Positions 12,538 through 40,809 of a DNA stretch of 42,773 bases are shown here, one piece after another. Under the pieces are notes generated by a model that saw nothing but the letters and a program-made list of their open reading frames with translations, searched no databases and was not told the DNA's origin. Both the position numbers and the translations under genes were made by a program. How positions within the stretch are numbered: position 1 is the stretch's first letter; every line of letters starts with the position of its first letter. The stretch lies in UHGV virus genome UHGV-0008253; one strand, given 5' to 3'. The stretch comes from a virus.

Positions 12538-12868
12538 ATCAGCAGCAGAGCGCAAAGCCGCTCAGAGAGCCAGACAAGCTGCATCTGGTGTGCGTAAGCT
12601 GGAAATTGTGCTTGATGCTCAGGAAATTGAAATGCTGGAGCGTAACTGTGCCACGCGTCGCCCCGGGCGTGCGCCTTACGAATTTGGTGAGTATATAGCG
12701 TTACTGATCCGCCAGGATGATGCACGCGTGCACGGGCGTATAAAATCGATCAGCAGAAAACGTTGCGGTAAGTGCGGCGAGAGAGTTCCTGTGAATTCAT
12801 GCCCGTGTGATGGTGACTCGCAATGCTGGGTGACTAAAGGCTGGCATGAAACGAAATTAATAGTGTGA
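12530..12868 (+). CDS. hypothetical zinc-ribbon protein (CGKCG...CPCDGDSQC), last gene before late-operon terminator
   Basis: Cys4 cluster at C-terminus; ATG at 12530; speculative late regulator by position only. Confidence 0.45.
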   Translation: MAKSAAERKAAQRARQAASGVRKLEIVLDAQEIEMLERNCATRRPGRAPYEFGEYIALLIRQDDARVHGRIKSISRKRCGKCGERVPVNSCPCDGDSQCWVTKGWHETKLIV

Positions 12869-12876
12869 CATGTCAC
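12865..12876. repeat. perfect 12-bp palindrome GTGACATGTCAC (copy 1)
   Basis: identical copy at 32693-32704; both overlap a TGA stop codon. Confidence 0.6.
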
Positions 12877-15098: not shown

Positions 15099-15132
15099 AA
15101 AACAAAGCCAGCTCATAGGCTGGCTGTTTGTG
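15099..15132. terminator. bidirectional terminator between convergent terL and minus-strand 123-aa gene
   Basis: hairpin agccagc-tcatag-gctggct flanked by A-run and T-rich tract. Confidence 0.55.
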
Positions 15133-15145
15133 ATATGTCACGGTG

Positions 15146-24866: not shown

Positions 24867-25411
24867 TGTGCGATCCGGTTATTGCTGGTGGCGCAATGCT
24901 CGCCATGAGTGGCATTCAGGCATACACCCAGTACCAACAGGGAAAGTATGCCTCGAAGGTTGCAGAAGCGAACGCAGATATAGCCACAGCTCAGGCAAAT
25001 GATGCAATAAACAGAGGTAACGCTGAAGCTGAGCAACGGCGCAGAGAGACCCGACAGCGGCTTGGTACACAGGCGGCGACAATGGGGGCTACCGGCGCTG
25101 ATTTATCTACAGGTAACGCGCTGGATATATTTGGCGACACTGCCCAGTTTGGCGCTCTTGATTCTCTGACGACGGTGAATAACGCGCAACGCGAGGCTTA
25201 CGGTTATCAGGTTCAGGCTGCCAACTATAAAGCAGAAGCCAGTTCAGCCCGTAAACAGGGGAATGTGGGAGCAGCAACAACATTGCTCACTGCGCCTCTG
25301 AAGGCATACGGTGCGTACCAGATGTTTGGTGGGACGTGGAGTCCGTTTACTCAAAGCACCCCTGCGCCAATCGGGGCAGCAGCAGGAACCAGATTACCCG
25401 GAGGATTATAA
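24866..25411 (+). CDS. internal virion protein candidate (Ala/Gln-rich)
   Basis: position before two large core-like proteins. Confidence 0.4.
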   Translation: MCDPVIAGGAMLAMSGIQAYTQYQQGKYASKVAEANADIATAQANDAINRGNAEAEQRRRETRQRLGTQAATMGATGADLSTGNALDIFGDTAQFGALDSLTTVNNAQREAYGYQVQAANYKAEASSARKQGNVGAATTLLTAPLKAYGAYQMFGGTWSPFTQSTPAPIGAAAGTRLPGGL

Positions 25412-27924
25412 TGCCAGTCGTACCAACAGTATCCGGCCGTCAGGTTCAGAGCCGTGGAGTTCAGTCAGCAGGCTTGCAGACGTTTTCTCAGCCAGGTATT
25501 GGTGATGCTTTTGTTCGGGCAGGGACAGAGGCAATTGATGTTTTGGGGCAGGCAAAACAGCGTGCCAATATCGCTCTGGCTCAGGAGGCATCTCTTAACC
25601 TCAGTCAGATAAGCAGTGATCTGCTGAATAATCCTGAAACAGGATTGCTTAACCTGAAAGGGAAAAATGCTATTGGAAAAGGTCAGGAGTATACGCAGCA
25701 GTTTGATGCTCAGGTCGAACAACTGGCTATGTCGCTGCCGGATGAACAGGCTCGTAATGCTTTCATGCAGCAGGCGCAGCAGCAGCGCATTCAGTTCACT
25801 ACGCAGGCCGGGCGGCACGAGATAGGGCAAATAAATGCCTACGAAGAAGGCCAGTTTCAGGCTACGCTGCTGAACAATGGTAAAAATGCCGCAGCATTGT
25901 ATGGCGACAACGCCGCATACGTATTGGCTAATAAGCAAACTTTCCAGCAAATTGAGGATTACGGCATTGCACATGGCTGGAGTGACGAGCAAATCCAGGC
26001 CAAGAAAATCGAGTTTAAAGAGAAGGTTGCTGATGCTGCATTGTCCCAGTGGTCGGCAAACAATGCGACCGCATTCATCCAAAGTAATGGCGAGTTAAGT
26101 GATACTGCTGCTGGAGCTCGCCGTGCTGTAGCAGATAGTGACTCTTCCGAGCGTGCCCGTGGCATACGCAACAATAACCCAGGAAATCTCGAATACAGCA
26201 AAACTAATCCGTGGGTAGGCCAGACCGGTGATGATGGTCGATTTGCTAAATTCGAAACACCTGAACACGGGATTCGTGCATTAGGGCGGAACCTGATGTC
26301 GTATCAGAGGCAGGGTATTGATACCGTCAGCGAGATAATTAATCGCTGGGCACCGCCTACTGATAAAAATGACACTATGTCGTATATCAAAGCAGTGTGC
26401 GAACAACTTGGCGTTTCTGCTGATGAGCCTCTCGATGCATCTAATCCTGATACCCTGAAGGCGCTTTGTGCAGCCATTATCCATCATGAGAACGGTAGCC
26501 AGCCATACAGTGATCAGCAGTTAACTGCTGGTGTCAGTGCAGCACTTGGTTTATCAACAATTCCAACCAACACCAAACGCTATACCGGTAATGCAGCATT
26601 CGATGCGGCATCTCCTGAGGCGCAGGCAAGTTTTATGCGACAGGCGGATCAACTGCGTCGGCAGCAGCAGGCTGAATATAAAACGATGATTGACAGCCAG
26701 GTTCGCGATGCGACAGCTGCGTATATGCGTGGCGTTGAATTTCCTAACCCACCTGGTGAGGCTGATTTTATTGCAGCTTATGGAGTAAGAGAAGGAAACC
26801 TGCGATATACCGAGTTCAGAAATACGCAAATCGCCGGACAGTATATAGGCTCTTTCCGCAATATGCCGACAAGCAGCATTACAGCATATGTTGAGCAATT
26901 ACGCCCGGATACTGGTGAGACAGGGGAGGGTTATGCGGCACGAGCCGCTCTTTATGACAACGTTGTGTCGGCTGCAAGTCAGGTGATAAAGCAGCGACAG
27001 GCTGATCCTGTACAGTTCTCTCTTGCCGCCGGACAGGCAAAGCCTATCGACATGAGCAATAAGGATAACTTTGGACAGAGCGTTGCCTTGCGTGCTGCTC
27101 AGGTCAGTGACCTTGCTAAGTCATATGGCACTCCACTGACGTTCTTTTCCAAAGACGAGGCCAATCAGATCGGTGTTTTCTTTCGTGATGCGCCCGTTTC
27201 CCAACAGGCAGCATATCTCGATACCATCAGGCAGAGCACTGGTGGTGGGCAGGTGTATATGTCAGCACTACAGCAGATCAGTGCCAACGCTCCATCTGCT
27301 GCCGTTGCCGGGATACTGATGGATAAGCCAGGTGGTATTTTGGCAGAAAAAAACTGGTTTAATCCGGATGTTTCCGTGTCTCCAGAAACCGCTGCGCAGA
27401 CAATTCTTGCTGGCGCGGCGGCTCGTAAAGGTACTGATGACGCGAAAGGTATTCCGATGCCTAAAGATGCTGATCTTCGCCTTGAGTTTTCTGACATGGT
27501 GAAGAATGCATTTGCTGGTGATGCTCAGGGGGCATCAATGGCATACGAGATCGCAAAGGACTATTACGCTGGTGTGATGGCGAAAAAAGGCGTGGTATCA
27601 GGCGAAATTGACAATGATATCTGGAAACAGGCTGTTAACGTAGCTACAGGTGGCGTGCATGACTATAACGGAATGGGGAATGTTCTTTTGCCGTGGGGAA
27701 TGTCTGCAGAGCAATTCGATAAGCAGGTTAATCAGGCTTGGAATGAACAAGTTGTTGGCACAGGGATAAAAACACCGCCTGGTCAGTATGGTTTGCAAAG
27801 TTACGGCGATAGTCAGTACCTGGTGAAACTTGGTACTGGTTATCTGCTAAAAGATGATGGTTCTCCCGTTGTTCTTGATCTGACACAGAAGCGTCAGAGA
27901 TTCTCCGGAGATATTCCGCAATGA
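25411..27924 (+). CDS. large internal virion/ejection protein
   Basis: 837 aa from ATG 25411 (GGAGG SD, TAATG coupling); assignment by size and position. Confidence 0.5.
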   Translation: MPVVPTVSGRQVQSRGVQSAGLQTFSQPGIGDAFVRAGTEAIDVLGQAKQRANIALAQEASLNLSQISSDLLNNPETGLLNLKGKNAIGKGQEYTQQFDAQVEQLAMSLPDEQARNAFMQQAQQQRIQFTTQAGRHEIGQINAYEEGQFQATLLNNGKNAAALYGDNAAYVLANKQTFQQIEDYGIAHGWSDEQIQAKKIEFKEKVADAALSQWSANNATAFIQSNGELSDTAAGARRAVADSDSSERARGIRNNNPGNLEYSKTNPWVGQTGDDGRFAKFETPEHGIRALGRNLMSYQRQGIDTVSEIINRWAPPTDKNDTMSYIKAVCEQLGVSADEPLDASNPDTLKALCAAIIHHENGSQPYSDQQLTAGVSAALGLSTIPTNTKRYTGNAAFDAASPEAQASFMRQADQLRRQQQAEYKTMIDSQVRDATAAYMRGVEFPNPPGEADFIAAYGVREGNLRYTEFRNTQIAGQYIGSFRNMPTSSITAYVEQLRPDTGETGEGYAARAALYDNVVSAASQVIKQRQADPVQFSLAAGQAKPIDMSNKDNFGQSVALRAAQVSDLAKSYGTPLTFFSKDEANQIGVFFRDAPVSQQAAYLDTIRQSTGGGQVYMSALQQISANAPSAAVAGILMDKPGGILAEKNWFNPDVSVSPETAAQTILAGAAARKGTDDAKGIPMPKDADLRLEFSDMVKNAFAGDAQGASMAYEIAKDYYAGVMAKKGVVSGEIDNDIWKQAVNVATGGVHDYNGMGNVLLPWGMSAEQFDKQVNQAWNEQVVGTGIKTPPGQYGLQSYGDSQYLVKLGTGYLLKDDGSPVVLDLTQKRQRFSGDIPQ

Positions 27925-29723
27925 GTTACTTTGGCCTTAATCCAGTAAACCAGAATCAGCAGCTTGACGAAGCAGCATCAAATCCAGTTGGCTTTAACAG
28001 CGATGTTGGTTTTTTCGACAATGCTGTAGGAGCGGCATTGTCTGGTTTGTACTCCGGGCTGGTGGCAAAGCCAGATCAGTTGCTATGGGCAGGGATGGAT
28101 AAAATCGTATCCCCGATTGCTCAGCTTGTTAACGAAAACACCTCGCTCAATGACACTTCAGTTTCATACATTGCTGAGCAGAGAAAACTAGCAGAGCAGC
28201 AGGTTAAGCGGCTGACGCCTGATGCCGCGACAACCGGAACCGCCGGGCAGGTCCTTTATGGGTTGTTCGATATGGGCGGGCAGGCTGTTGTCGGTACAAC
28301 GCTCGGTGGTCCGGTCGGAGGTGCTGCGGCGGTAACTTCTCTACAGGGTTTTTCTGAGTTTGAACGGTTGACAGCACAGGGTGTTGATTTCAGGACGGCG
28401 CAGGAAGCGGGATTAGTGCAGGGTATTACTGCTGGTGCCGGAACACTGATCCCTATGAGCCTCGGGTTACGTGCTGGTGGTGCGCTGGCGGAAGGTGTGG
28501 CGGCTCAGCTTGCGCGGACGGGTGAAAGTTCAGTGCGACGCGCCGCAGCAACAGCAATACGTGCAACGCCAGATATTGCCTATGCCGCAGGTACAAATAT
28601 TGCGTTCGGTATGGCACAGCGTGGGCTTACTGCAAAAACGCTTCGTGATGGTGGCTATAGCGAAATGGCTAACCAGTATGATGTGTTGGATCGACAGGCA
28701 ATTGCTATTGATGCTGTTCTTGGGGTGGCGTTTGGTGGTGTCGGCAGATTTATTAACTCTCGCGGCGAGTCTACAAGCGCACCAAATTTTTCACCAGTTG
28801 ATATTGATGCTGCACTGGCGGCGAATGCCGCTCATCATGCTGAAATTGATATTGCTCCCGGCGTTCCGATCAACGTGCTTTCGCGTAATTCGCACATTCA
28901 GGCTCTGCGAAAAGCCATGTCTGATGTTAGCCAGGGGAGACCTGTAGACGTTGCCAGCATTGTTGAGTCTGCATCTTTCAGTGAAATTCCTGGGCGCAAG
29001 AGTCTGCTGTCTCAGGCAGTTAATGAGGCTCTGTCATCTGTAGATGATGGAGTAACGGCGCGCGCTATAGAAAATCGGTTGCTTGAAGAACAGGCCGCGC
29101 AGCTTTTGTCGCGTGGCGATAGAAAGGTTTACCAGTCTGAAATCGCTAATAGCCAACGAATTATTGAAAATCTCACTGAACAGCGCGCACAAATTCTTGC
29201 AGAAGAGCCAACCGGTAGCGGTAAGGCTTTATCTCGTGCTCGATCAGATAAACAGGCCAGACTTCGCGATATTGACCAACGAATCCGGCAGGCACAAGAA
29301 CGCCTGGAATTTTCTCGTAACGCGTTGGCGCCGCACGAGCCTGGAGGTCAGTTTTTTGAAGCTCGAGCAGAACTGGCACGACGACAGCAGGCAGAAAGTG
29401 AACTTAATGCTCAGGCTGTTTCATTCTATAAAACAGCAGAGGTCAGGACGCCAGAAGAAGTAGCTCCTTTTGAGCCCGGTAAGATATTGCAACAGACAGA
29501 ACAAAAAATGATGGCAGATCCGGCAGGAGATATTGATCTGCGCATAGCTGAAGACTCGCTGCTTGAATCACCTGACATGATAATCACCGTGCTGGATGAT
29601 GATGGTAATCCACAATCGCGCAGTGCGCGTGAAGCACTGGATGAAGCGAACAGGGAAAGTGAGCAGGCAATACAGGATTCCAGCCTGTTTGATGTCGCTG
29701 TGGCGTGTTTCTTGAGAGGTTAA
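27921..29723 (+). CDS. internal virion/ejection protein
   Basis: 600 aa, coupled. Confidence 0.5.
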   Translation: MSYFGLNPVNQNQQLDEAASNPVGFNSDVGFFDNAVGAALSGLYSGLVAKPDQLLWAGMDKIVSPIAQLVNENTSLNDTSVSYIAEQRKLAEQQVKRLTPDAATTGTAGQVLYGLFDMGGQAVVGTTLGGPVGGAAAVTSLQGFSEFERLTAQGVDFRTAQEAGLVQGITAGAGTLIPMSLGLRAGGALAEGVAAQLARTGESSVRRAAATAIRATPDIAYAAGTNIAFGMAQRGLTAKTLRDGGYSEMANQYDVLDRQAIAIDAVLGVAFGGVGRFINSRGESTSAPNFSPVDIDAALAANAAHHAEIDIAPGVPINVLSRNSHIQALRKAMSDVSQGRPVDVASIVESASFSEIPGRKSLLSQAVNEALSSVDDGVTARAIENRLLEEQAAQLLSRGDRKVYQSEIANSQRIIENLTEQRAQILAEEPTGSGKALSRARSDKQARLRDIDQRIRQAQERLEFSRNALAPHEPGGQFFEARAELARRQQAESELNAQAVSFYKTAEVRTPEEVAPFEPGKILQQTEQKMMADPAGDIDLRIAEDSLLESPDMIITVLDDDGNPQSRSAREALDEANRESEQAIQDSSLFDVAVACFLRG

Positions 29724-29728
29724 ATTAA

Positions 29729-32203
29729 ATGAGACAGGAATGTATACAAGCGGTTCAGCAGGCGGCGCAGCGCATGTTAACGGCGCGAGAAATACAGAAC
29801 ATTGAAGACCGCATTTATCGAAATATGCGCTCCATTGCTCGTGATGACCCTATGTCGTGGCGACAACTTTCCGAATCAGAGCGGCTATATCGAGCAGCAC
29901 AATTGGCATCTGAAGAATTACAGCGAGAAGCGGCATTAAAGAAACGTCGTGTGGCCCTCACTATAGCCGCACGTCAGAGATTGGATAAATTTATCAATAG
30001 CTATCAAGGGGCTGATGGGAAACTTGGCGCTCTTAACCGTACTATTGCTTTTAATGCAGACGGTAAATCGAATTTCCTCTCTGTTGAATCCAGAACAAAA
30101 GCCACTCGTGATTATGCATTGAGTCAATTGCAGGAGGCATTTGAAGCAGTTGATCCTCGCTTTTTTGGCCTGTTTGAAGATGAAGCTGGCGTGCGTGACC
30201 TGGTATATGAAATGCGAGGGCAAAATACTGGCAATGCTAAAGCAAGAAAAGGTGCTAAGGCGTGGAGAGAAGTGACAGAGCTACTGCGCCGCCGGTTTAA
30301 TGATGCTGGTGGGGACATTGGCTATCTCGAAAACTGGGGGCTCCCTCAACATCATTCTATGGAAAAGGTTGGGGCGGTATCAAAGGATAAGTGGGTTAGC
30401 GATGTTATAGGTAAGCTGGATCGCAAATATTATACCCGAGTCGATGGACAACTGATGAACGATGCCGAGTTGTCTGCATTTCTTGGAGAGGCTTATAACA
30501 CGATCGCTACTGGTGGGCTGAATAAGCTTACTGATACCGGAATGCGAATTTCCGGCGCACGTGCTAACCGGGGTAATGCATCACGACAGATACATTTCAA
30601 AGATGCAGATTCCTATCTGCAATATCAGCAACTTTATGGCGATCGCTCTCTATGGGAAATCATGGTCGGTCACCTGGAAGGTATCAGTAAAGATATTGCA
30701 CTGGTGGAAACATATGGCCCAAACCCCGATCATGTTTTCCGCTCTCTTCTTGATCAGGTGAAGGCAGAAACGGCAACAGCTAACCCGAGTAAAACCGGTA
30801 AAGTCGAGCGGCTGGCGAACAACACAGAGAATCTGTACAACTTTATTTCCGGAAAGACACAGCCTGTAGCGAATCCGCACATCGCGCGATGGTCTGACAA
30901 TATCCGCAACTGGCTGGTTGCCAGCAGACTCGGATCCGCGTTGCTGTCATCGTTCTCTGATCTTGGAACCATGTATCTGTCTGCGAAGGTTACCAACCTT
31001 CCAATGAACCAGTTATTCCGCAACCAGCTTGAAGCTATGGACCCAACGAACCGTACAGAACTTGCGCGGGCGCGCCGCGCTGGTCTGGCGATGGAATCTC
31101 TACTTGGCAGCGTTAACCGCTGGGCGATGGATAATATGGGGCCGTCTGTGTCTCGTTGGGCTGCAACGGTGGTAATGCGTGCCAGTGGGCTTACAGCATG
31201 GTCAGATGCGCACAAGCGCGCCTATGGCGTAACCATGATGGGAAGCCTGGGAGAAGTAGTGTCACGGACACCAGACCTTCGTAGCCTCGATGATTCTGAT
31301 TTTCGTATCCTGAAAAGCAAAGGGATTACTGACACAGACTGGAGCGTATGGAAGCTGGCGCAACAGGAGGACTGGGGGAACGGTAATAATACGATGCTGA
31401 CACCGGAAAGCATTATGCGTATCCCTGATTCAGCAGTTAAACATCTTGGTGAGCCTGAACGCGTGAAATTTGAGGCAATGCGTAAACTGCTCGGTGCCGT
31501 AACTGAAGAAGTTGATATGGCTGTTATTACACCGGGTGCACGTGAGCAACTGATAACCGGTTCTGGTATTCAGCGTGGAACATGGAAAGGTGAATTAACG
31601 AGAAGTGTTTTCCTGTTTAAATCGTTCCCTATCTCGGTGGTTATGCGTCACTGGTCACGCGCTATGGGTATGCCGTCGGCTGGTGGGCGTGCGGCATATA
31701 TTGCGACGTTTATTGCCAGTACGACCATTCTTGGCGCTTTGTCGCAGCAACTTAACGACCTTGCGTCTGGTCGTAATCCTCGCGAGATGACAGGAGAAGA
31801 TGCTGCTAAATTTTGGCTTGGTGCTCTACTGAAAGGTGGTGGTCTTGGCCTTTACGGTGACTTTTTATTGTCAGATCACACTAGGTACGGAAGCGGCGCG
31901 CTGGCGTCGATGCTTGGCCCGGTAGCTGGTCTGGTTGATGACGTAGTGAAGATTGCTCAGGGCATACCGTTAAATGCTGTGGAAGGGAAGAATGAGCAGA
32001 CTGGTGGTGATCTGGTTAAGCTGGGGAAAGGTCTGATGCCAGGTGCGAATCTCTGGTACTTAAAGGCGGCTCTCGATCACATGATCTTTAACCAGATGCA
32101 GGAGTATTTTTCACCAGGTTATTTGCGTAAAATGGAGCAACGTTCGAAGAAAGAGTTTAACCAGACATACTGGTGGCGACCACAGGATGTCACTCCGCAA
32201 TAA
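29729..32203 (+). CDS. large internal virion/ejection protein
   Basis: 824 aa, last gene before accessory island. Confidence 0.5.
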   Translation: MRQECIQAVQQAAQRMLTAREIQNIEDRIYRNMRSIARDDPMSWRQLSESERLYRAAQLASEELQREAALKKRRVALTIAARQRLDKFINSYQGADGKLGALNRTIAFNADGKSNFLSVESRTKATRDYALSQLQEAFEAVDPRFFGLFEDEAGVRDLVYEMRGQNTGNAKARKGAKAWREVTELLRRRFNDAGGDIGYLENWGLPQHHSMEKVGAVSKDKWVSDVIGKLDRKYYTRVDGQLMNDAELSAFLGEAYNTIATGGLNKLTDTGMRISGARANRGNASRQIHFKDADSYLQYQQLYGDRSLWEIMVGHLEGISKDIALVETYGPNPDHVFRSLLDQVKAETATANPSKTGKVERLANNTENLYNFISGKTQPVANPHIARWSDNIRNWLVASRLGSALLSSFSDLGTMYLSAKVTNLPMNQLFRNQLEAMDPTNRTELARARRAGLAMESLLGSVNRWAMDNMGPSVSRWAATVVMRASGLTAWSDAHKRAYGVTMMGSLGEVVSRTPDLRSLDDSDFRILKSKGITDTDWSVWKLAQQEDWGNGNNTMLTPESIMRIPDSAVKHLGEPERVKFEAMRKLLGAVTEEVDMAVITPGAREQLITGSGIQRGTWKGELTRSVFLFKSFPISVVMRHWSRAMGMPSAGGRAAYIATFIASTTILGALSQQLNDLASGRNPREMTGEDAAKFWLGALLKGGGLGLYGDFLLSDHTRYGSGALASMLGPVAGLVDDVVKIAQGIPLNAVEGKNEQTGGDLVKLGKGLMPGANLWYLKAALDHMIFNQMQEYFSPGYLRKMEQRSKKEFNQTYWWRPQDVTPQ

Positions 32204-32212
32204 GGAAGTGTT

Positions 32213-32386
32213 GTGTTTTTAATTATTTTGAGTGTGATAATTTCTGGTGGATTGTTATTTATTGACCGCTACAAATATTTTCTTAACCCTCAGACTCAAG
32301 CTATTTGCTGGTTCATCTTTGTTGTGCAGGGAGTAGTTCTTGTTGCAAGCCTTATTGAGGGGAGGCCTCTTATTTTTACTGGGTAA
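32213..32386 (+). CDS. possible 57-aa hydrophobic protein (GTG start)
   Basis: AAGGAAG SD 4 nt before GTG; two hydrophobic stretches; below ORF-track cutoff. Confidence 0.3.
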   Translation: MFLIILSVIISGGLLFIDRYKYFLNPQTQAICWFIFVVQGVVLVASLIEGRPLIFTG

Positions 32387-32399
32387 ATTAGGTGACTAC

Positions 32400-32696
32400 A
32401 TGCAAGCTATAGGATTCATTGTTTATATCGTCGTTGGTCTTTTTCAGTTGGCAGCAATTATGGCTGGGCTTGAATCATGGTGGGGATTGCACTGGATAAT
32501 TGCAGCCCCCATTGCTTTCATCGTGAGCTATATTCCATTTGTTGGAGCGATTGTTGGTATGGTTGGCGCTGTGGATGTATGGCGGTGGGAGTGGTGGCAG
32601 GCTGGCCTTCTCTTCTTTGGTGGGATCATCTTTGCTATTGTCTGCGGTGGAATGTCATCATTTTTCGAATGGCTATCATTCAGAAAAGGGACGTGA
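32400..32696 (+). CDS. small membrane protein (3 predicted TM helices)
   Basis: MQAIGFIVYIVVGLFQLAAIMAGL... hydrophobic throughout; own terminator downstream. Confidence 0.55.
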   Translation: MQAIGFIVYIVVGLFQLAAIMAGLESWWGLHWIIAAPIAFIVSYIPFVGAIVGMVGAVDVWRWEWWQAGLLFFGGIIFAIVCGGMSSFFEWLSFRKGT

Positions 32697-32704
32697 CATG
32701 TCAC
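32693..32704. repeat. perfect 12-bp palindrome GTGACATGTCAC (copy 2)
   Basis: identical to 12865-12876; overlaps TGA stop and directly abuts terminator hairpin. Confidence 0.6.
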
Positions 32705-32729
32705 AGGCCGCTTTCGCGGCCTTGTTTTT
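32705..32729 (+). terminator. rho-independent terminator
   Basis: hairpin aggccgc-tttc-gcggcct followed by tgttttta. Confidence 0.7.
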
Positions 32730-32889
32730 AACGAATGCCACCGCCGCCTGGGCGGGAATCCGCAGAACGCCCACCGCAGCGTGAGCCGTCAGCAGCAGTG
32801 TCGCTGTCGTGCTGACAACGACCGGCAAAGGCCTGAGTTGAAGCTACCAGAGACAACAAAACGAACAGTGCAGCAAATGCTTTTTTCAT
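32728..32889 (-). CDS. small secreted peptide (signal peptide MKKAFAALFVLLSLVASTQAFA + about 31-aa Gly/Arg/Cys-containing mature part)
   Basis: textbook signal peptide with AxA site; candidate TTGACG-N16-TATAGA promoter with very short leader. Confidence 0.45.
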   Translation of the reverse strand: MKKAFAALFVLLSLVASTQAFAGRCQHDSDTAADGSRCGGRSADSRPGGGGIR

Positions 32890-32961
32890 TGTGACATTTC
32901 CATCTATAAGCCACCTCAATGTGGCGTCAATGAGTGTAGCACTGACTTTTGTTTCGTCCAC

Positions 32962-32990
32962 AAAAAAGCCCGCAGCGCGGGCTATTCTTT
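32962..32990. terminator. bidirectional rho-independent terminator
   Basis: hairpin gcccgc-agc-gcgggc flanked by A6 upstream and tattctttttt downstream; overlaps stop of 288-aa gene. Confidence 0.7.
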
Positions 32991-33848
32991 TTTGCTATTT
33001 CTTTGATATATATTTCTTCCATTTTTGGTAACACGAATAACGTGCCCCCTGGATTCTACTTTGTTATTTGTTGCTTTATATACTTCAAAATCAAACCATG
33101 ATATATAACTTATTTCGTCAATAGACACCATGATCTCAAGTCCTAGCACTTTCTTTCTGCTAATTCCTCTTATTGCTGCAGTCCGCTTGACCTGTATTTC
33201 TCCTGGATAAGCATTAGTGAATGTGACAGATAAGTTTTCTTTGTTCCTGTATCCTGACATTAAAGGAACAAAAGATATGTGCTGATGCGGACCCTGATTT
33301 TCCGTTGGTTCACCAGAACCATTTATTATTCCAACATACACTTTGTTTGATGATAAAGTAATCAACATTGGTCGTTTAGGATCCGATTCAATAGCATCAA
33401 GCAATAGTAAGTCTAAAGAACCTTGCGAGTAAGTTTTTCGCAGTACTCTGGCCTTCATTGCCTCTGTTTTTTGCTCGTAAATATCACGTTTATAAAAACA
33501 ACCAAGAAGAAAATCTTTCACCCACACAACAGACACATAACACAAAGAGAAGCAAATGGATGTGGCTGAGAGAAGAAGCAGCCACATGTAAATTCTATCT
33601 GTTTCTGGTTTTGATGTTACATTAAAAGTTTCCACCATATCGTGAACTAGGTGAAAATCAGGCCATTTATATTTTATAGCGGCTGCAATTATTACTGATG
33701 CAACAAGGCAATATGTACCTAATGCAGCTACTTTCATATAAAGAAGCTGGCCTTCATGTCGGTATAAACGGAAATAATGATACTGGTTAGCGGTTATCAT
33801 AATATAACCACTAACCAGAATGGGGATAATTAGAAGAGCTAACAACAC
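32982..33848 (-). CDS. membrane-anchored protein of unknown function (3 N-terminal TM helices + about 170-aa soluble domain), low-GC moron
   Basis: hydrophobic segments at residues about 1-20, 39-58, 88-110; markedly AT-rich codon usage versus neighbours; coupled to upstream 69-aa gene. Confidence 0.6.
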   Translation of the reverse strand: MLLALLIIPILVSGYIMITANQYHYFRLYRHEGQLLYMKVAALGTYCLVASVIIAAAIKYKWPDFHLVHDMVETFNVTSKPETDRIYMWLLLLSATSICFSLCYVSVVWVKDFLLGCFYKRDIYEQKTEAMKARVLRKTYSQGSLDLLLLDAIESDPKRPMLITLSSNKVYVGIINGSGEPTENQGPHQHISFVPLMSGYRNKENLSVTFTNAYPGEIQVKRTAAIRGISRKKVLGLEIMVSIDEISYISWFDFEVYKATNNKVESRGHVIRVTKNGRNIYQRNSKKE

Positions 33849-34164: not shown

Positions 34165-34815
34165 TCAGAAGAACCCTGCCTTGTCGTTGATGTACTCCGC
34201 GTGGGTCTGGATATCACGCAGGCATTTGCTCACACCGACGATGTAGCAGAACATGGTGGTCAGCTCCGCCGCCGCGCCCGATACGTCGTGCCCGTCGTCC
34301 TGTAACTGGTTCAGCAGATTCATCAGCAGTGAGTTCTCCGTCAGGCCGAGAACACCAGACGGCGAATGAATCAGGCTACGGTAGCCGGGCTTCAGTGGGG
34401 CACTGTATTCTTTTTTGTCTTCCAGCTTGATCGCCTCCATAATGGCGGGCATGAAGCCTGACAAGACCTTCTCCACTTTTGTTTCTTGTTGTCTTAAACG
34501 TTTCTCGCATTCAATGAAGTAGCGTCGTACCTGACGACCTTTTTCGTTACGCTCGACCATCGCCAGCTCTTTGGCTGTATCGAGGGTGAGGTGGTAGTCT
34601 TTTGCAGGACGGCCTCTGCCTATTTTTTCCCGAACTTGGGAAATAATCATAAAGTCTTGATTTTCAACGAAACCATATTCAGAAATTCGTTCGACAATCC
34701 ACGAAGCAAATCGCTTACCCACATCGAGGAAAGTGTGTAAATCACGGGCATTAACGAGAAGAGCGGTTTCGTTGGATATAGTGCCGTTGAATACGGGGAT
34801 GAGTTGAGCGTTCAT
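34165..34815 (-). CDS. antirepressor (AntA/Bro-N-like N-terminal domain + C-terminal domain shared with 85-aa protein)
   Basis: N-terminus LIPVFNGTISNETALLVNARDLHTFLDVGKRFASWIVE resembles AntA-type antirepressors; C-terminus about 40 percent identical to 35133-35390 product. Confidence 0.65.
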   Translation of the reverse strand: MNAQLIPVFNGTISNETALLVNARDLHTFLDVGKRFASWIVERISEYGFVENQDFMIISQVREKIGRGRPAKDYHLTLDTAKELAMVERNEKGRQVRRYFIECEKRLRQQETKVEKVLSGFMPAIMEAIKLEDKKEYSAPLKPGYRSLIHSPSGVLGLTENSLLMNLLNQLQDDGHDVSGAAAELTTMFCYIVGVSKCLRDIQTHAEYINDKAGFF

Positions 34816-34973
34816 TATGGCGTCTCCACTTAGCGAATTACATCACCACCGCTGAGACCAATCAGATGGTGGTGAACTGAACGGAGTTGGTCTTACCGGC
34901 CTAAGTGGTACCGGCGTCCTTTCGGACCCCCATTCAGCCCACCATAATTCTGGCATGACTGTGCTATACGCAT

Positions 34974-35095
34974 AAAAAAACCACGTCTGGCGTGGTATGC
35001 GCCACTTAGTAATCCGGGAGACCAATCCCGGCACTGGATTTTGCCAGTGCCCGATTACTATGGCACAAGAGGAGTGCGATGTAAATTTACCTCAA
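34974..35095 (-). ncRNA. candidate small RNA / structured ant leader ending in intrinsic terminator
   Basis: candidate promoter -35 TTGAAA (35124-35129), -10 TTATAT (35102-35107), operator over +1; three stem-loops (ggcactgg/ccagtgcc, ccggga/tcccgg, ccacg/cgtgg) then U7. Confidence 0.4.
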
Positions 35096-35585: not shown

Positions 35586-38500
35586 ATGACGGTCTCAACC
35601 GAAGTTGACCACAACGAATACACCGGTAACGGCGTTACGACATCGTTTCCGTATACTTTTCGAGTTTTCAGAAAATCAGACCTGGTTGTTCAGGTGTCTG
35701 ACCTGAACGGAAACGTAACAGAATTGGTTCTGGATACCGGTTATACGGTAACTGGGGCGGGCACTTATAGTGGCGGTTCTGTGGTTCTTCCGTCTCCGCT
35801 TGCTACTGGATGGCGAATTACGATAGATCGTGTGCTTGATGTAGTGCAGGAGACAGACCTTCGCAATCAGGGAAAATTTTTCCCCGAAGTGCATGAAGAT
35901 GCCTTTGACTACCTGACGATGCTGATCCAGCAATGTTTTGGGTGGTTCAGACGTGCATTGATGAAACCATCTTTGCTTGCAAAATATTACGATGCAAAGC
36001 AAAACAAAATTTCTAACCTTGCAGATCCATCATTTGAGCAGGACGCTGTAAATAATCGCTCAATGCGTAATTATGTCGATGCTGCAATCTCCGGGGTTGT
36101 TGGTGGTTTTGGTTGGTTTATTCAGTATGGTTCTGGGGCTGTGTACCGAACGTTCCAGGATAAAATGCGTGATGCTATTAGCCCCAAAGATTTTGGAGCT
36201 GTTGGTGATGGTATAAATGACGATTCCACTGCAATAAGCGCGTGCCTTGAAGCCTCATCTCCAGGTTATAAAATTGACGGATTAGGGCTTACTTTTAAAG
36301 TATCAACTCTTCCGGATGTCAGTCGATTTAAAAATGCTCGTTTTTTATTTGAGAGAATACCGGGCCAGCCTCTTTTTTATGCTTCTGAAGATTTTATCCA
36401 GGGAGAGTTATTTAAAATTACAGATACACCGTGGTACAACGCCTGGACGCAGGATAAAACGTTTGTATATGACAATGTCATCTATGCGCCTTTTATGGCT
36501 GGAGACCGCCATGGTGTAAATAACCTCCATGTTGCATGGGTTCGCTCAGGAGATGACGGGAAGACCTGGACAACGCCGGAATGGCTTACAGATTTACATG
36601 AAAACTATCCCACAGTTAACTATCACTGCATGAGTATGGGGGTTGTCAGAAATCGCCTTTTTGCTGTAATTGAGACGCGGACCGTGAGCGGAAATAAACT
36701 GCAGGTTGCAGAGTTGTGGGATCGCCCAATGAGTCGCAGCCTTCGCGTTTATGGTGGTATAACGAAAGCAGCAAATCAGCAAGTCGCTTATATTCGCATT
36801 ACTGATCACGGATTATTTGCTGGTGATTTTGTCAACTTCTCAAACTCTGGTGTTACAGGTGTTACCGGGAATATGACGGTGACTACTGTTATTGATAAAA
36901 ATACTTTTACAGTTACGACGCAAAATACCCAGGATGTGGATCAGAATAACGAGGGTAGATACTGGAGTTTTGGTACATCATTTCACTCGTCACCATGGAG
37001 AAAAACCAGTCTTGGAACTATTCCTTCTTTTGTTGACGGAAGCACTCCTGTTACTGAGATTCACAGTTTTGCGACGATTAGCGATAACAGTTTTGCTGTT
37101 GGCTACCATAATGGTGATATTGGTCCACGCGAGCTTGGGATACTCTATTTCTCTGATGCTTTCGGTTCTCCTGGTAGCTTTGTTCGCAGACGCATACCTG
37201 CAGAATATGAGGCGAATGCATCTGAGCCATGTGTAAAATATTATGATGGCATTCTGTATCTGACGACCAGGGGGACATTAAGTACTCAACCCGGTAGTTC
37301 ATTGCACAGAAGCTCTGATTTAGGTACATCATGGAATTCTCTTCGCTTCCCAAATAATGTTCATCACTCAAACCTTCCTTTTGCCAAAGTTGGCGATGAG
37401 CTGATTATTTTTGGCAGTGAGCGCGCATTTGGTGAGTGGGAAGGAGGAGAACCTGATAACCGTTATGCAGGAAACTATCCAAGAACATTTATGACCAGAG
37501 TTAACGTCAATGAGTGGAGTCTGGATAATGTAGAGTGGGTTAATGTTACTGATCAGATTTATCAGGGCGGAATAGTTAACTCTGCGGTTGGTGTTGGTTC
37601 AGTTTGTATCAAAGACAACTGGCTGTACTACATTTTCGGTGGGGAAGACTTTCTAAACCCATGGAGCATAGGGGATAACAACAGAAAATATCCTTATGTT
37701 CACGATGGTCACCCGGCTGATTTGTATTGTTTCAGGGTGAAAATTAAACAGGAAGAATTTGTTTCAAGGGATTTTGTCTACGGAGCCACTCCTAACAGAA
37801 CGCTTCCTACTTTTATGTCGACGTCAGGCGTGAGGACGGTTCCTGTACCCGTTGATTTCACAGATGATGTTGCCGTCCAGTCACTGACTGTCCATGCAGG
37901 TACATCAGGACAAGTTCGCGCGGAAGTCAAACTTGAGGGTAATTACGCCATTATTGCGAAGAAAGTACCGTCTGATGATGTTACCGCTCAGAGATTAATC
38001 GTTAGCGGCGGTGAAACAACGTCTTCAGCAGATGGTGCAATGATAACGTTGCATGGTTCCGGAAGCAGTACTCCACGTCGCGCGGTATATAACGCACTCG
38101 AACATCTTTTTGAGAACGGAGATGTTAAACCTTATCTTGATAATGTAAATGCTCTTGGTGGTCCGGGAAACAGGTTCTCGACAGTTTATCTTGGCTCCAA
38201 TCCTGTGGTTACCAGTGACGGAACATTAAAGACAGAGCCGGTCTCTCCTGACGAAGCATTGCTGGATGCCTGGGGTGACGTCAGGTATATCGCTTATAAA
38301 TGGCTGAACGCTGTCGCTATAAAGGGGGAAGAAGGGGCGAGGATACATCATGGTGTAATCGCGCAGCAACTTCGTGATGTTCTTATTTCTCACGGACTCA
38401 TGGAAGAAGAAAGCACAACATGCCGCTATGCCTTTCTTTGCTATGACGATTATCCCGCAGTATATGATGACGTCATTACTGGCCAAAGGGAAATGCCGCT

Positions 38501-38705
38501 GACTGATAATGACGGGAGCATCATTGTTGATGAGGATGATAATCCAGTGATGGTAATAGAAGACATCATTGAGCGCGTTGAAATAACGCCAGCAGGATCT
38601 AGATGGGGGGTCAGACCTGATCTCTTATTCTATATCGAGGCAGCATGGCAGCGCAGAGAAATGGATAAGATAAAAGAGCGGGTTCAGTCTCTGGAAGAAC
38701 GTTAA
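35586..38705 (+). CDS. tailspike / receptor-binding depolymerase with pectate-lyase-like beta-helix and C-terminal intramolecular chaperone (S74-like) domain
   Basis: ISPKDFGAVGDGINDDSTAISA motif typical of beta-helix tailspikes; C-terminus SDGTLK...IHHGVIAQQLRDV...AAWQRREMDKIKERVQSLEER resembles autoproteolytic chaperone domains. Confidence 0.8.
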   Translation: MTVSTEVDHNEYTGNGVTTSFPYTFRVFRKSDLVVQVSDLNGNVTELVLDTGYTVTGAGTYSGGSVVLPSPLATGWRITIDRVLDVVQETDLRNQGKFFPEVHEDAFDYLTMLIQQCFGWFRRALMKPSLLAKYYDAKQNKISNLADPSFEQDAVNNRSMRNYVDAAISGVVGGFGWFIQYGSGAVYRTFQDKMRDAISPKDFGAVGDGINDDSTAISACLEASSPGYKIDGLGLTFKVSTLPDVSRFKNARFLFERIPGQPLFYASEDFIQGELFKITDTPWYNAWTQDKTFVYDNVIYAPFMAGDRHGVNNLHVAWVRSGDDGKTWTTPEWLTDLHENYPTVNYHCMSMGVVRNRLFAVIETRTVSGNKLQVAELWDRPMSRSLRVYGGITKAANQQVAYIRITDHGLFAGDFVNFSNSGVTGVTGNMTVTTVIDKNTFTVTTQNTQDVDQNNEGRYWSFGTSFHSSPWRKTSLGTIPSFVDGSTPVTEIHSFATISDNSFAVGYHNGDIGPRELGILYFSDAFGSPGSFVRRRIPAEYEANASEPCVKYYDGILYLTTRGTLSTQPGSSLHRSSDLGTSWNSLRFPNNVHHSNLPFAKVGDELIIFGSERAFGEWEGGEPDNRYAGNYPRTFMTRVNVNEWSLDNVEWVNVTDQIYQGGIVNSAVGVGSVCIKDNWLYYIFGGEDFLNPWSIGDNNRKYPYVHDGHPADLYCFRVKIKQEEFVSRDFVYGATPNRTLPTFMSTSGVRTVPVPVDFTDDVAVQSLTVHAGTSGQVRAEVKLEGNYAIIAKKVPSDDVTAQRLIVSGGETTSSADGAMITLHGSGSSTPRRAVYNALEHLFENGDVKPYLDNVNALGGPGNRFSTVYLGSNPVVTSDGTLKTEPVSPDEALLDAWGDVRYIAYKWLNAVAIKGEEGARIHHGVIAQQLRDVLISHGLMEEESTTCRYAFLCYDDYPAVYDDVITGQREMPLTDNDGSIIVDEDDNPVMVIEDIIERVEITPAGSRWGVRPDLLFYIEAAWQRREMDKIKERVQSLEER

Positions 38706-39011: not shown

Positions 39012-39416
39012 ATGTCTGCTCAAGTAACAAGTGAGCAATTAAATCAGTTGCTTAGTTTTGGTTCTCTTGCTGCAGTTATTGCAGGTGTCCCTCCGGAGGT
39101 TGCTTTAGGGGCTTTGGCTGGGGCGGTAATTTTTGTTACCTCTGCAGTAGAGTACCCCATCCGTCGCCGGGTGCTCCTGTCGATGCTCAGCTTTCTTTGC
39201 GGCCTTCTCTTTTACAAACCAGCAGCATCAATTCTTATCGGCATAGCCAGCCTGATCCCTACCATCACGCAGGACTCTTTTGAAAAAGGGATTGTTTTCT
39301 CTGCAGGCGCATTCGTGTCAGCAATTGTCGCTGTGCGTATTGGTATATGGCTCTATCACCGTTCCGATAATCCACGCGAGTTAATTCCGGGGAGAAAAGA
39401 CGATGGTAACGCATGA
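39012..39416 (+). CDS. holin-like membrane protein
   Basis: multiple TM segments, AGGAGAAAG SD, first gene of lysis cassette. Confidence 0.55.
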   Translation: MSAQVTSEQLNQLLSFGSLAAVIAGVPPEVALGALAGAVIFVTSAVEYPIRRRVLLSMLSFLCGLLFYKPAASILIGIASLIPTITQDSFEKGIVFSAGAFVSAIVAVRIGIWLYHRSDNPRELIPGRKDDGNA

Positions 39417-39711
39417 GTTTTTTTTGCTTATCACTAATGCAGTTATTTGCACTGGCATAGCAATTCGCGTTGTCACATTCCGGCGTAACGGCTCTCAACA
39501 TCGAAGGTGGGGAGGATGGCTTGCTTATTTCCTGATTGTTGCTGCGGCCAGTATTCCTGTTCGAGTCGCCTATGCAATCTGGTTACGTACGCCAATGGCT
39601 GTGGATTTATCTGAGGTCATTATCAACGCTGTCATGCTGGCTGCGGTTATTAAAACGCGCGGTAACGTCGTTCAAATTTTTAAAGTATCGAGGTCTAAAC
39701 ATGGAGATTAA
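39403..39711 (+). CDS. holin-like membrane protein (3 TM)
   Basis: three hydrophobic helices with charged C-terminus; overlaps endolysin start. Confidence 0.55.
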
Positions 39712-40330
39712 ACAATTCCAGCGAGCTGCTGGTATCAGCGAGGCACTGGCCGCACGCTGGTTCTCGCATATAACTTCTGCGATGAAAGAGTTTGGTATCA
39801 GCAAAGCAGAAGATCAGGCAATGTTTATTGCTCAAGCCGGGCATGAGTCTGGGGGCTTCACCAGGTTGCAGGAGAATTTCAACTACAGTGTCAGCGGACT
39901 GGCTAACTTCGTTCGGGCTGGGCGTCTCACTCAGGGGCAGGCTAATGCACTGGGGCGCCGTGCTGGTGAACCACCATTGCCACTTGAGCGCCAGCGCGCA
40001 ATCGCAAATCTGGTATACAGCAAACGCATGGGGAACAATGCCCCTGGTGATGGCTGGAATTACCGAGGGCGCGGACTTATCCAGATTACCGGTTTGAATA
40101 ACTATCGTGATTGCGGAAACGGTCTGAAGGTTGACCTGCTGGAGAGCCCTGAACTGCTGGCGCAGGACGAATATGCGGCTCGTAGCGCGGCGTGGTTCTT
40201 CGCCAGCAAAGGATGCATGAAGTATACCGGCGATATTGCACGTGTAACTCTGATTATCAATGGTGGCCGGAACGGCATCGACGACCGGCGAGCGCGGTAC
40301 ATCACTGCCAGTAAGGTGCTGGCGGTATGA
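39701..40330 (+). CDS. endolysin, glycoside hydrolase family 19 (chitinase-like lysozyme)
   Basis: [12 protein letters not shown]...[12 protein letters not shown] motifs typical of GH19-type phage endolysins; ATG 39701. Confidence 0.75.
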
Positions 40331-40809
40331 TCTGGGCATTCGTAAAAGCATACTGGAAACAGTTTCTTATCGTGGCAGTGCTTGCTGTTCTGGTCATATC
40401 AGGAGTGGTTGCTTGGAATATACACGGCAGTCGCCAGTACGATGCCGGGTATGCTCAGGCGGAAGAAGACCGCAAAGCCGAAGAAGACAAAGTTCGTCAG
40501 TACTACGAACAGGAGAAAGTGACCAATGAACGTGAAGCTCAGCAGAGGATCGACCAGGCGCGCAATGATGCTCTTGATGCTGCCGCTAGCGCTGGCCGGT
40601 TGCAGCAACAACTCTTTGCCATCCGTGAGCAGCTCAGGCAGTATAACGCCATTGTCGGCGCTGGGTCGTCAGCCGCAGACACCGGAGTTTTGCTTGCCGA
40701 CGTGCTCAGCAAATCTCTCGAGAGAAACAGACAACTGGCAGAGTATGCTGACCGGGCAGCCGAAGCCGGAAGAGTCTGCGAAAAACAGTACGACACTTTG
40801 ACCAGATAG
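40327..40809 (+). CDS. i-spanin (Rz-like)
   Basis: N-terminal TM helix then coiled-coil-rich periplasmic domain; ATGA overlap with endolysin. Confidence 0.75.
40526..40801 (+). CDS. o-spanin (Rz1-like lipoprotein) embedded in +1 frame of Rz
   Basis: signal peptide with lipobox LAGC; wholly inside Rz gene. Confidence 0.6.
   Translation: MNVKLSRGSTRRAMMLLMLPLALAGCSNNSLPSVSSSGSITPLSALGRQPQTPEFCLPTCSANLSRETDNWQSMLTGQPKPEESAKNSTTL

Follow-up and report, generated by a model that had tools for sequence, protein, structure and literature searches.

Most of the small envelope proteins encoded by prophages lack annotation, although in many cases they determine the range of phages to which a lysogen is open. 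The described systems that come closest to the locus analyzed here are of several kinds. SieA of phage P22 is a 164-aa membrane protein that, according to its annotation, has its own promoter and is located in the envelope; its gene is the first after the last ejection gene (gene 16) and is convergent to the late operon. In the epsilon15-like phages, the place after the last ejection gene is taken by small hydrophobic proteins, namely gp18 of epsilon15 (64 aa) and p21 of phiV10 (46 aa), both with two predicted helices. Morons, in the sense of Hendrix and colleagues, are independent inserts that consist of a promoter, a gene and a terminator. Spackle of phage T4 and periplasmic lysozyme inhibitors such as Ivy, all of them small and exported by Sec, inhibit a wall-degrading enzyme in the periplasm, and Ivy contains a short disulfide-closed loop with His and Asp. 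Apart from these systems, MgrB, which acts on PhoQ, exemplifies small anchored proteins that modulate a membrane sensor.

The stretch of DNA analyzed here (hereafter the window; 42,773 nucleotides of the UHGV virus genome UHGV-0008253) is 99% identical to Escherichia phage phiv142-3 over most of the region and shows patchier similarity to other members of Uetakevirus; given these matches, it is assigned to a Uetakevirus (epsilon15/phiV10-like) temperate podovirus prophage of E. coli. The genes at 25336-27924, 27921-29723 and 29729-32203 are the counterparts of epsilon15 gp15-gp17, and the last of them (824 aa) matches phiV10 p20 and phiv142-3 Orf13 in position and size. The gene at 25336-27924 encodes an 862-aa ejection protein, and a lytic-transglycosylase (SLT) domain is present in its counterparts from related prophages. 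[quoted passage not shown] It also treated the three genes as one cluster, and this part did not survive the comparison with other genomes (see below). The features of the late-operon end are the following:

29729-32203, plus strand: last ejection (internal virion) protein, 824 aa, counterpart of epsilon15 gp17 and phiV10 p20.
32213-32386, plus strand: 57-aa hydrophobic protein, two helices (two hydrophobic stretches), start codon GTG, 37% GC.
32400-32696, plus strand: 98-aa predicted helical inner-membrane protein (phrog_3075; full-length PHROG profile match, 2.9e-54).
32693-32704, no strand: perfect 12-bp palindrome GTGACATGTCAC, which overlaps the stop codon of the 98-aa gene.
32705-32730, plus strand: intrinsic terminator of the late (ejection) operon from the terminator scan, stem AGGCCGC/GCGGCCT followed by TGTTTTT.

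The 57-aa ORF is annotated neither in the PGAP output nor in the phiv142-3 record. It is preceded by GGAAG 4 nt ahead of its GTG and is contained in 72 IMG/VR loci. In a diverged clade, with a protein identity of 71-79%, the ORF is still exactly 57 codons long, begins with TTG and is preceded by a strong Shine-Dalgarno sequence, and in all 3 diverged loci that were read through, the 98-aa gene follows directly. The dN/dS ratio calculated against this clade is 0.19-0.24 in frame and 0.98-1.85 in the other two frames. Given the conservation of the 57-codon length at this level of identity and a dN/dS of ~0.2 in this frame only, the ORF, initially proposed as a possible hydrophobic protein with a GTG start, can be considered a real gene that was missed by public annotation. 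A terminator-like hairpin inside the ORF (32356-32372) was rejected as a signal and treated as coding sequence because it is absent from the diverged clade.

The 98-aa gene, with AGGTGA 4 nt ahead of its ATG, has 52 database homologues, mostly of 94-103 aa, in Klebsiella, Cronobacter, Dickeya, Yersinia, Kosakonia and Salmonella. All 28 aligned homologues begin at the same Met and share the conserved W-x-W-x-W-W-Q-A-x-L-L-F-F-G signature; given this common start, the 118-aa version with a TTG start in the phiv142-3 annotation, the extension of which is not conserved, is wrong. The protein, which had been proposed to have three TM segments, contains three hydrophobic stretches. The AF2 model (pLDDT 90.9) is all helical, with helices at 2-28, 32-42, 46-59 and 65-97, and a Foldseek search of PDB and BFVD with this model gave only hits with E > 4 and no fold match. 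In Cronobacter prophages, only 1 nt separates the gene of this family from the last ejection gene; in a Yersinia prophage, both genes are likewise on one strand and close together, but a short ORF has been called between them on the other strand. To judge from these homologues, the 98-aa gene is a real member of a family of 94-103-aa proteins that are encoded after the last ejection protein in enterobacterial prophages.

Both genes lie on the strand of the ejection genes and have their own ribosome-binding sites, and no plus-strand promoter was found in a scan of positions 31900-32400. Thus, the claim that each of the small genes has its own signals is valid for translation of these two genes but not for promoters. 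Given the lack of a promoter of their own between 31900 and 32400, the 57-aa and 98-aa genes appear to be the final cistrons of the late ejection operon, and one strong terminator ends them. The hairpin of this terminator is also located 3' of the stop codon of the convergent peptide gene (z = -3.85 for the minus-strand RNA fold); its T run is on the plus strand and not on the strand of the peptide gene.

The palindrome GTGACATGTCAC has four matches in the window (two perfect and two with one mismatch) vs 0.13 expected, and is found also at window positions 12865-12876 and 15130-15141, in locus L170 (5520-5531) and in phiV10 (L002:6213-6224). The copies of the palindrome sit at operon ends next to terminators, and it may be a regulator or processing site. 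The palindrome and the same terminator occur side by side in epsilon15, phiV10, and Cronobacter and Klebsiella loci, and among the relatives examined they always close the slot after gp17. In the relatives examined, this slot contains one or two small hydrophobic proteins of unrelated sequence, such as epsilon15 gp18, phiV10 p21 and a Cronobacter 99-aa protein; no sequence similarity was detected between gp18 and the 57-aa protein. In a Klebsiella relative, the slot right after the last ejection gene contains instead a Rap1a-domain protein (Pfam PF18602; L091:5711-6094); Rap1a confers immunity to an effector of type VI secretion. On this evidence, the ejection operon of epsilon15-like phages ends in a conserved slot for small hydrophobic proteins.

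The 57-aa and 98-aa proteins would accordingly be produced in the late phase of infection, along with the ejection proteins, and would act at the inner membrane. One possible function is in the phage's own late program, either in the insertion or assembly of the ejection proteins or in lysis timing, and the strand, the missing promoter and the shared operon terminator all suit such a role, as do weak matches to a holin model in 4 of the 29 members of the 98-aa family (Phage_holin_5_2; E = 0.027 for the window protein). The score of the window protein (15.2 bits) is, however, far below the cut-off of 29.2 bits, and the protein is encoded outside the complete lysis cassette, which is found elsewhere in the window (~39012-40809, with holin and endolysin near 39403-40330), so that it does not qualify as a holin. 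Furthermore, close relatives have unrelated sequences in the slot, which is unusual for an essential morphogenetic partner, and we regard a late function as possible but somewhat less probable than a protective one. We tentatively suggest that the two proteins protect the membrane of the producing cell against DNA entry or ejection proteins, that is, act in immunity or exclusion. As apparent last members of the late operon, the two genes are not obvious candidates for expression in the lysogen, and they could not protect a lysogen unless there is an unseen promoter.

The third gene is convergent to this operon and, with its signals, comprises the following features:

32889-32728, minus strand: gene for a predicted secreted peptide, 53 aa before processing (phrog_14503 at 2.3e-40).
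32889-32824, minus strand: predicted signal peptide, followed by the mature peptide (32823-32731) and the stop codon (32730-32728); these coordinates were checked.
32903-32930, minus strand: putative promoter of the peptide gene, TTGACG (32930-32925), 16-nt spacer, TATAGA (32908-32903).
32967-32983, both strands: two-way terminator hairpin from the terminator scan of both strands, AGCCCGC/GCGGGCT with T runs on both sides.

In addition to phrog_14503, the peptide matches phrog_3117 (4.1e-36), in both cases over the full length; neither these two clusters nor phrog_3075 carry a tested function, and the NCBI name of the protein is 'transmembrane anchored protein'. The leader consists of MKK, the hydrophobic segment AFAALFVLLSLVA (13 residues) and the c-region STQAFA, with A at -3 and -1, followed by G. 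Judging from this layout, it has all the features of a Sec signal peptide cleaved by signal peptidase I, and the textbook signal peptide originally proposed is borne out at the sequence level. A lipobox with Cys at +1, as in exclusion lipoproteins of the Cor, Llp or Bor type, is missing in the window peptide, which has AFA followed by GRC at the corresponding place. The predicted mature peptide, GRCQHDSDTAADGSRCGGRSADSRPGGGGIR, is hydrophilic and 31 aa long and includes two Cys, five Arg and eight Gly residues; its AF2 model is of low confidence (pLDDT 46-63).

Homologues of the peptide (57 matches) were found in E. coli, Shigella, Klebsiella, Citrobacter, Cronobacter, Franconibacter, Salmonella, Pectobacterium and Dickeya. 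In the 24 that were aligned, the leader is free to vary in sequence with its layout kept, and the region from C25 to G49 is invariant or nearly so. In the DNA alignment of 7 loci from 5 genera, codon positions 1 and 2 are fixed and position 3 is variable; given that the substitutions are confined to third codon positions, the 53-aa gene is evidently coding and its mature part appears to be under strong selection. An alternative 77-aa start was rejected because the extension is not conserved, and the end coordinate given for the region in the original prediction, 32961, is the GTG of this extension and has to be abandoned. The absence of the 57-aa ORF from public annotation could be taken as a sign that one or more of the three ORFs are chance frames or belong to a non-coding RNA locus. 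This possibility is refuted by the in-frame-only dN/dS of ~0.2 for the 57-aa ORF, the third-position variation in the peptide gene and the conserved start and length of the 98-aa gene, and no Rfam family matches the region of the three small genes; we assign it next to no weight. Comparison with relatives confirms that all three ORFs are real genes with the coordinates listed above and that all three are conserved in related prophages, and their description as small envelope proteins holds.

The putative promoter, TTGACG-N16-TATAGA, ends 13 nt before the ATG of the peptide gene and would give a leader of ~6-10 nt, so that the almost leaderless start of the original prediction is plausible. A consensus promoter scan rejected this sequence because the -10 hexamer lacks the final T. 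In other genera, the promoter sequence is only loosely kept, and the respective versions of the gene have either a short arrangement without a Shine-Dalgarno sequence or a normal one. The spacer of the putative promoter contains an inverted repeat, GCCAC-N6-GTGGC (GCCACATTGAGGTGGC; 32910-32925, minus strand), which is kept in 11 enterobacterial versions, with 87% of the cells paired and two pairs with compensatory changes (in Pectobacterium and one Enterobacter locus). This repeat could be an operator or an RNA hairpin. The two-way hairpin at 32967-32983 is both the upstream edge of the peptide cassette and the end of the gene for a 288-aa protein. The transcript table for phiv142-3 in serum vs LB lists induced genes only, and orf11 and orf12 are not among the serum-induced ones; the subject of that study was orf6 and orf10 rather than orf11 or orf12, and Orf10 is a small gene that is reported to raise serum resistance (PMC7724020). 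In phiv142-3, orf10 (L001:6985-7143) is located just upstream of the peptide cassette, at the place of the 288-aa ORF in the window.

The distribution of the three genes was traced at two levels. Of the 80 IMG/VR loci that encode an identical peptide, most cease to resemble the window ~80-100 nt upstream of the ORF and 40 nt downstream of it, and the gene upstream of the peptide varies among loci: a YafO toxin, DUF2335, DUF4760 or RelB/YafQ gene, compared with the 288-aa ORF in the window. Among 5426 complete E. coli genomes, the peptide cassette is present in 433 (8%), the pair of the 57-aa and 98-aa genes in 216, and both together in only 143; given these counts, the three genes do not form one unit, contrary to the single cluster that had been proposed. 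The cassette is found in epsilon15-like prophages, in phage TL-2011b, where Arc and Ant are its neighbors, and in prophages of Pectobacterium and Dickeya with a Phage_Tail_Tip gene. Every Enterobacterales copy examined lies in a prophage accessory region, among genes of the toxin-antitoxin or immunity type. In phiV10 (L002:6246-6269), only the last seven codons of the peptide gene (TGGGGIR, followed by the stop codon) are left, beside the shared terminator; this remnant is a deletion scar and shows that this phage once had the cassette. As in morons, the cassette is present or absent between conserved genes of related phages. The comparison of these loci shows a convergent, hairpin-bounded cassette of ~300 bp that moves independently between phages, and the region is best described as two independent accessory modules that adjoin each other where the ejection operon ends. 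For the overall two-module explanation, we estimate a probability of roughly 0.55.

The region is an ordinary kind of prophage accessory region. Further downstream, the minus strand encodes the 288-aa membrane-type ORF, an AntA antirepressor and a gp19-like gene, followed by the tailspike gene at 35586-38705. The 288-aa ORF (32982-33848, minus strand; phrog_3630; 36% GC) has hydrophobic N-terminal segments and no match in Pfam and PADLOC scans, and its slot is variable: relatives hold YafO, DUF2335, DUF4760 or HicA together with a DUF1902 protein. It could be an abortive infection-type gene. Just upstream of the AntA gene (34165-34815), the stretch 34865-35063 (minus strand) matches the Rfam families isrK (67.7 bits) and C4 antisense RNA (61.2 bits) and also contains a C4 a1/b1 target. 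Thus, the AntA locus is, by these matches, a P1/P7-type RNA-controlled antirepressor module located between the ejection genes and the tailspike.

Searches of Pfam, NCBIfam and PADLOC gave nothing usable for any of the three small proteins, and the same holds for Pfam scans of their aligned homologues; at E <= 1, there was no match of PADLOC models to the six proteins of the region. The assessment that nothing here is assignable by sequence therefore stands with respect to curated families and fails in another respect, namely that the peptide is one of many proteins that share a motif. Its mature part represents the minimal form of this two-cysteine motif of ~28 aa, G-x-C-x4-D-x-A-x-D-G-S-R-C-G-x-R-S-A-x-S-R-P-G-G. 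A profile search with the peptide against 1.84 billion representative proteins yielded 485 clusters at E <= 0.001, with the highly conserved family consensus [YF]-A-G-N-C-x-x-P-x-D-x-A-x-D-G-S-R-C-G-G-R-S-A-x-S-R-P-G-G; ~40% of the motif proteins end one residue beyond the consensus. Among the best 146 of the 485 clusters, the motif stands alone after a signal peptide in 36, is C-terminal after a membrane helix or lipobox in 43, comes just after the signal peptide of a longer protein in 35, and is internal in 20. In nearly all of these 146 clusters the motif is preceded by a signal peptide, lipobox or membrane helix and is thus extracytoplasmic. Some of the distant relatives have a lipobox, and in a lambdoid prophage the gene for one lipoprotein relative lies between Q and the holin gene, on the opposite strand. 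One further candidate, P0158, has chitin-binding repeats of the eukaryotic type and appears to be a false relative.

When one genome per species was scanned, 103 copies of the motif were confirmed, most of them 47-53-aa pre-peptides. The best 80 of these copies are from Enterobacterales, Rhizobiales, Burkholderiales, Pasteurellaceae, Vibrio, Bacteriovorax and several cyanobacteria, so that the motif is spread over Proteobacteria and Cyanobacteria. Clustering of the neighbors of the 80 genomic copies revealed no recurrent partner gene, and the sampled neighbors outside Enterobacterales are ordinary chromosomal genes (LysR, HtpG, M20 peptidase). The motif was not named in Pfam and NCBIfam scans of the larger proteins that carry it, a profile search of PDB with the peptide gave no relative, and the literature searched contained nothing relevant on the NCBI-named protein, the motif or epsilon15 gp18. 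By these searches, the motif appears to be widespread and undescribed in Pfam, NCBIfam, PDB and the searched literature, and a gene present in ~8% of complete E. coli genomes encodes its minimal form.

We propose that in the lysogen the peptide gene is expressed from a weak promoter of its own, that the product leaves the cytoplasm by way of Sec, is processed after AFA and forms a disulfide between Cys25 and Cys38, and that the free peptide would then bind a conserved component of the envelope in the periplasm. A different fate of the leader is suggested by the database name: if left uncleaved, it would anchor the protein in the inner membrane, where it might modulate a membrane sensor, in the manner of MgrB. 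In many members of the family, the motif directly follows a true membrane helix or a lipid anchor, so that a tethered version evidently works. The A-x-A site and the short, 13-residue h-region of the window peptide nevertheless suit cleavage, and the hydrophobic segment varies in the way that signal peptides do, so that retention of the leader appears unlikely.

The position and the neighbors argue for a role of the region in envelope protection, given that P22 sieA occupies the same place in the same orientation and that the neighboring genes are of the toxin-antitoxin or immunity type. Accordingly, among the functions considered, we infer that envelope protection or superinfection exclusion is the most likely one. 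For the peptide in particular, we suggest, with reservations, that it protects the envelope of the lysogen, by superinfection exclusion or by blocking a wall-degrading enzyme. A general periplasmic role of the motif is equally possible given its wide distribution outside phages, and because the copies outside Enterobacterales sit among ordinary chromosomal genes, its basic role may be unrelated to phages. Along these lines, the peptide could be a lysogenic conversion factor for host physiology, that is, a captured housekeeping mini-protein that binds a metal, the wall or a periplasmic ligand and helps under envelope stress. Compatible with such an origin are the occurrence of the same ~50-aa pre-peptide in Rhizobiales, Burkholderiales, Pasteurellaceae, Vibrio and cyanobacteria, the ordinary chromosomal surroundings there, with no recurring gene, and the conserved Asp, Ser, Arg and Gly positions, which would fit a ligand-binding loop. 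Given that the Enterobacterales copies examined are all in prophage accessory regions with genes of the toxin-antitoxin or immunity type, we consider a host factor possible but less probable than the protective role. A more far-reaching and more speculative proposal, to which we attach a still lower probability, is that the peptide represents an unrecognized class of disulfide-closed periplasmic mini-proteins across diderm bacteria, which bind a universal envelope target and have been captured by enterobacterial prophages as a free-standing shield. If so, the target would be, for example, peptidoglycan or a wall-cleaving enzyme, and the shield would be directed against incoming phages or the wall-degrading enzymes of type VI secretion systems. 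The peptide is short enough for chemical synthesis, so that its target can be searched for directly.

The original prediction also allowed for modification of surface polysaccharides. Both epsilon15 and phiV10 carry conversion genes, and in epsilon15 these include a 66-aa two-helix inhibitor of the host polymerase. The conversion genes of epsilon15 and phiV10 are, however, located beside the tailspike and not in the slot after the ejection genes, and the interval that separates the tailspike gene of the window from its lysis genes contains no ORF of >= 80 aa. Pfam scans of the small proteins revealed no Gtr, acyltransferase (Oac) or Wzy domain, and no alignment with the epsilon15 alpha-polymerase inhibitor (gp21) was obtained at E <= 100. 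An effect on the O antigen or another surface polysaccharide thus finds no support and appears very improbable. What the present analysis adds to the picture is an unannotated 57-aa gene, a conserved slot for small hydrophobic proteins and an undescribed periplasmic mini-motif.

Compared with the known systems, the locus combines features of several. T4 Spackle and Ivy are several times larger than the peptide; the disulfide-closed loop of Ivy resembles the C-Q-H-D/P-x-D start of the peptide motif and is a lead only. The peptide cassette is similar to P22 sieA in being the first gene met after the last ejection gene on the convergent strand, but encodes a predicted secreted peptide of 31 residues rather than a membrane protein; SieA itself is unrelated in sequence to the 288-aa protein (BLASTP E = 2.7) and to the 98-aa family (hhalign probability of 0.4%). 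With morons, the peptide gene shares the form of a compact, hairpin-bounded insert that is present or absent and occurs in several phage types, and it departs from them in that its putative promoter is not of consensus grade. The 57-aa protein differs from epsilon15 gp18 and phiV10 p21 in that the slot contains two genes in the window and one in those phages, but the slot itself, the strand, the terminator with the adjacent palindrome and the two-helix build are all the same.
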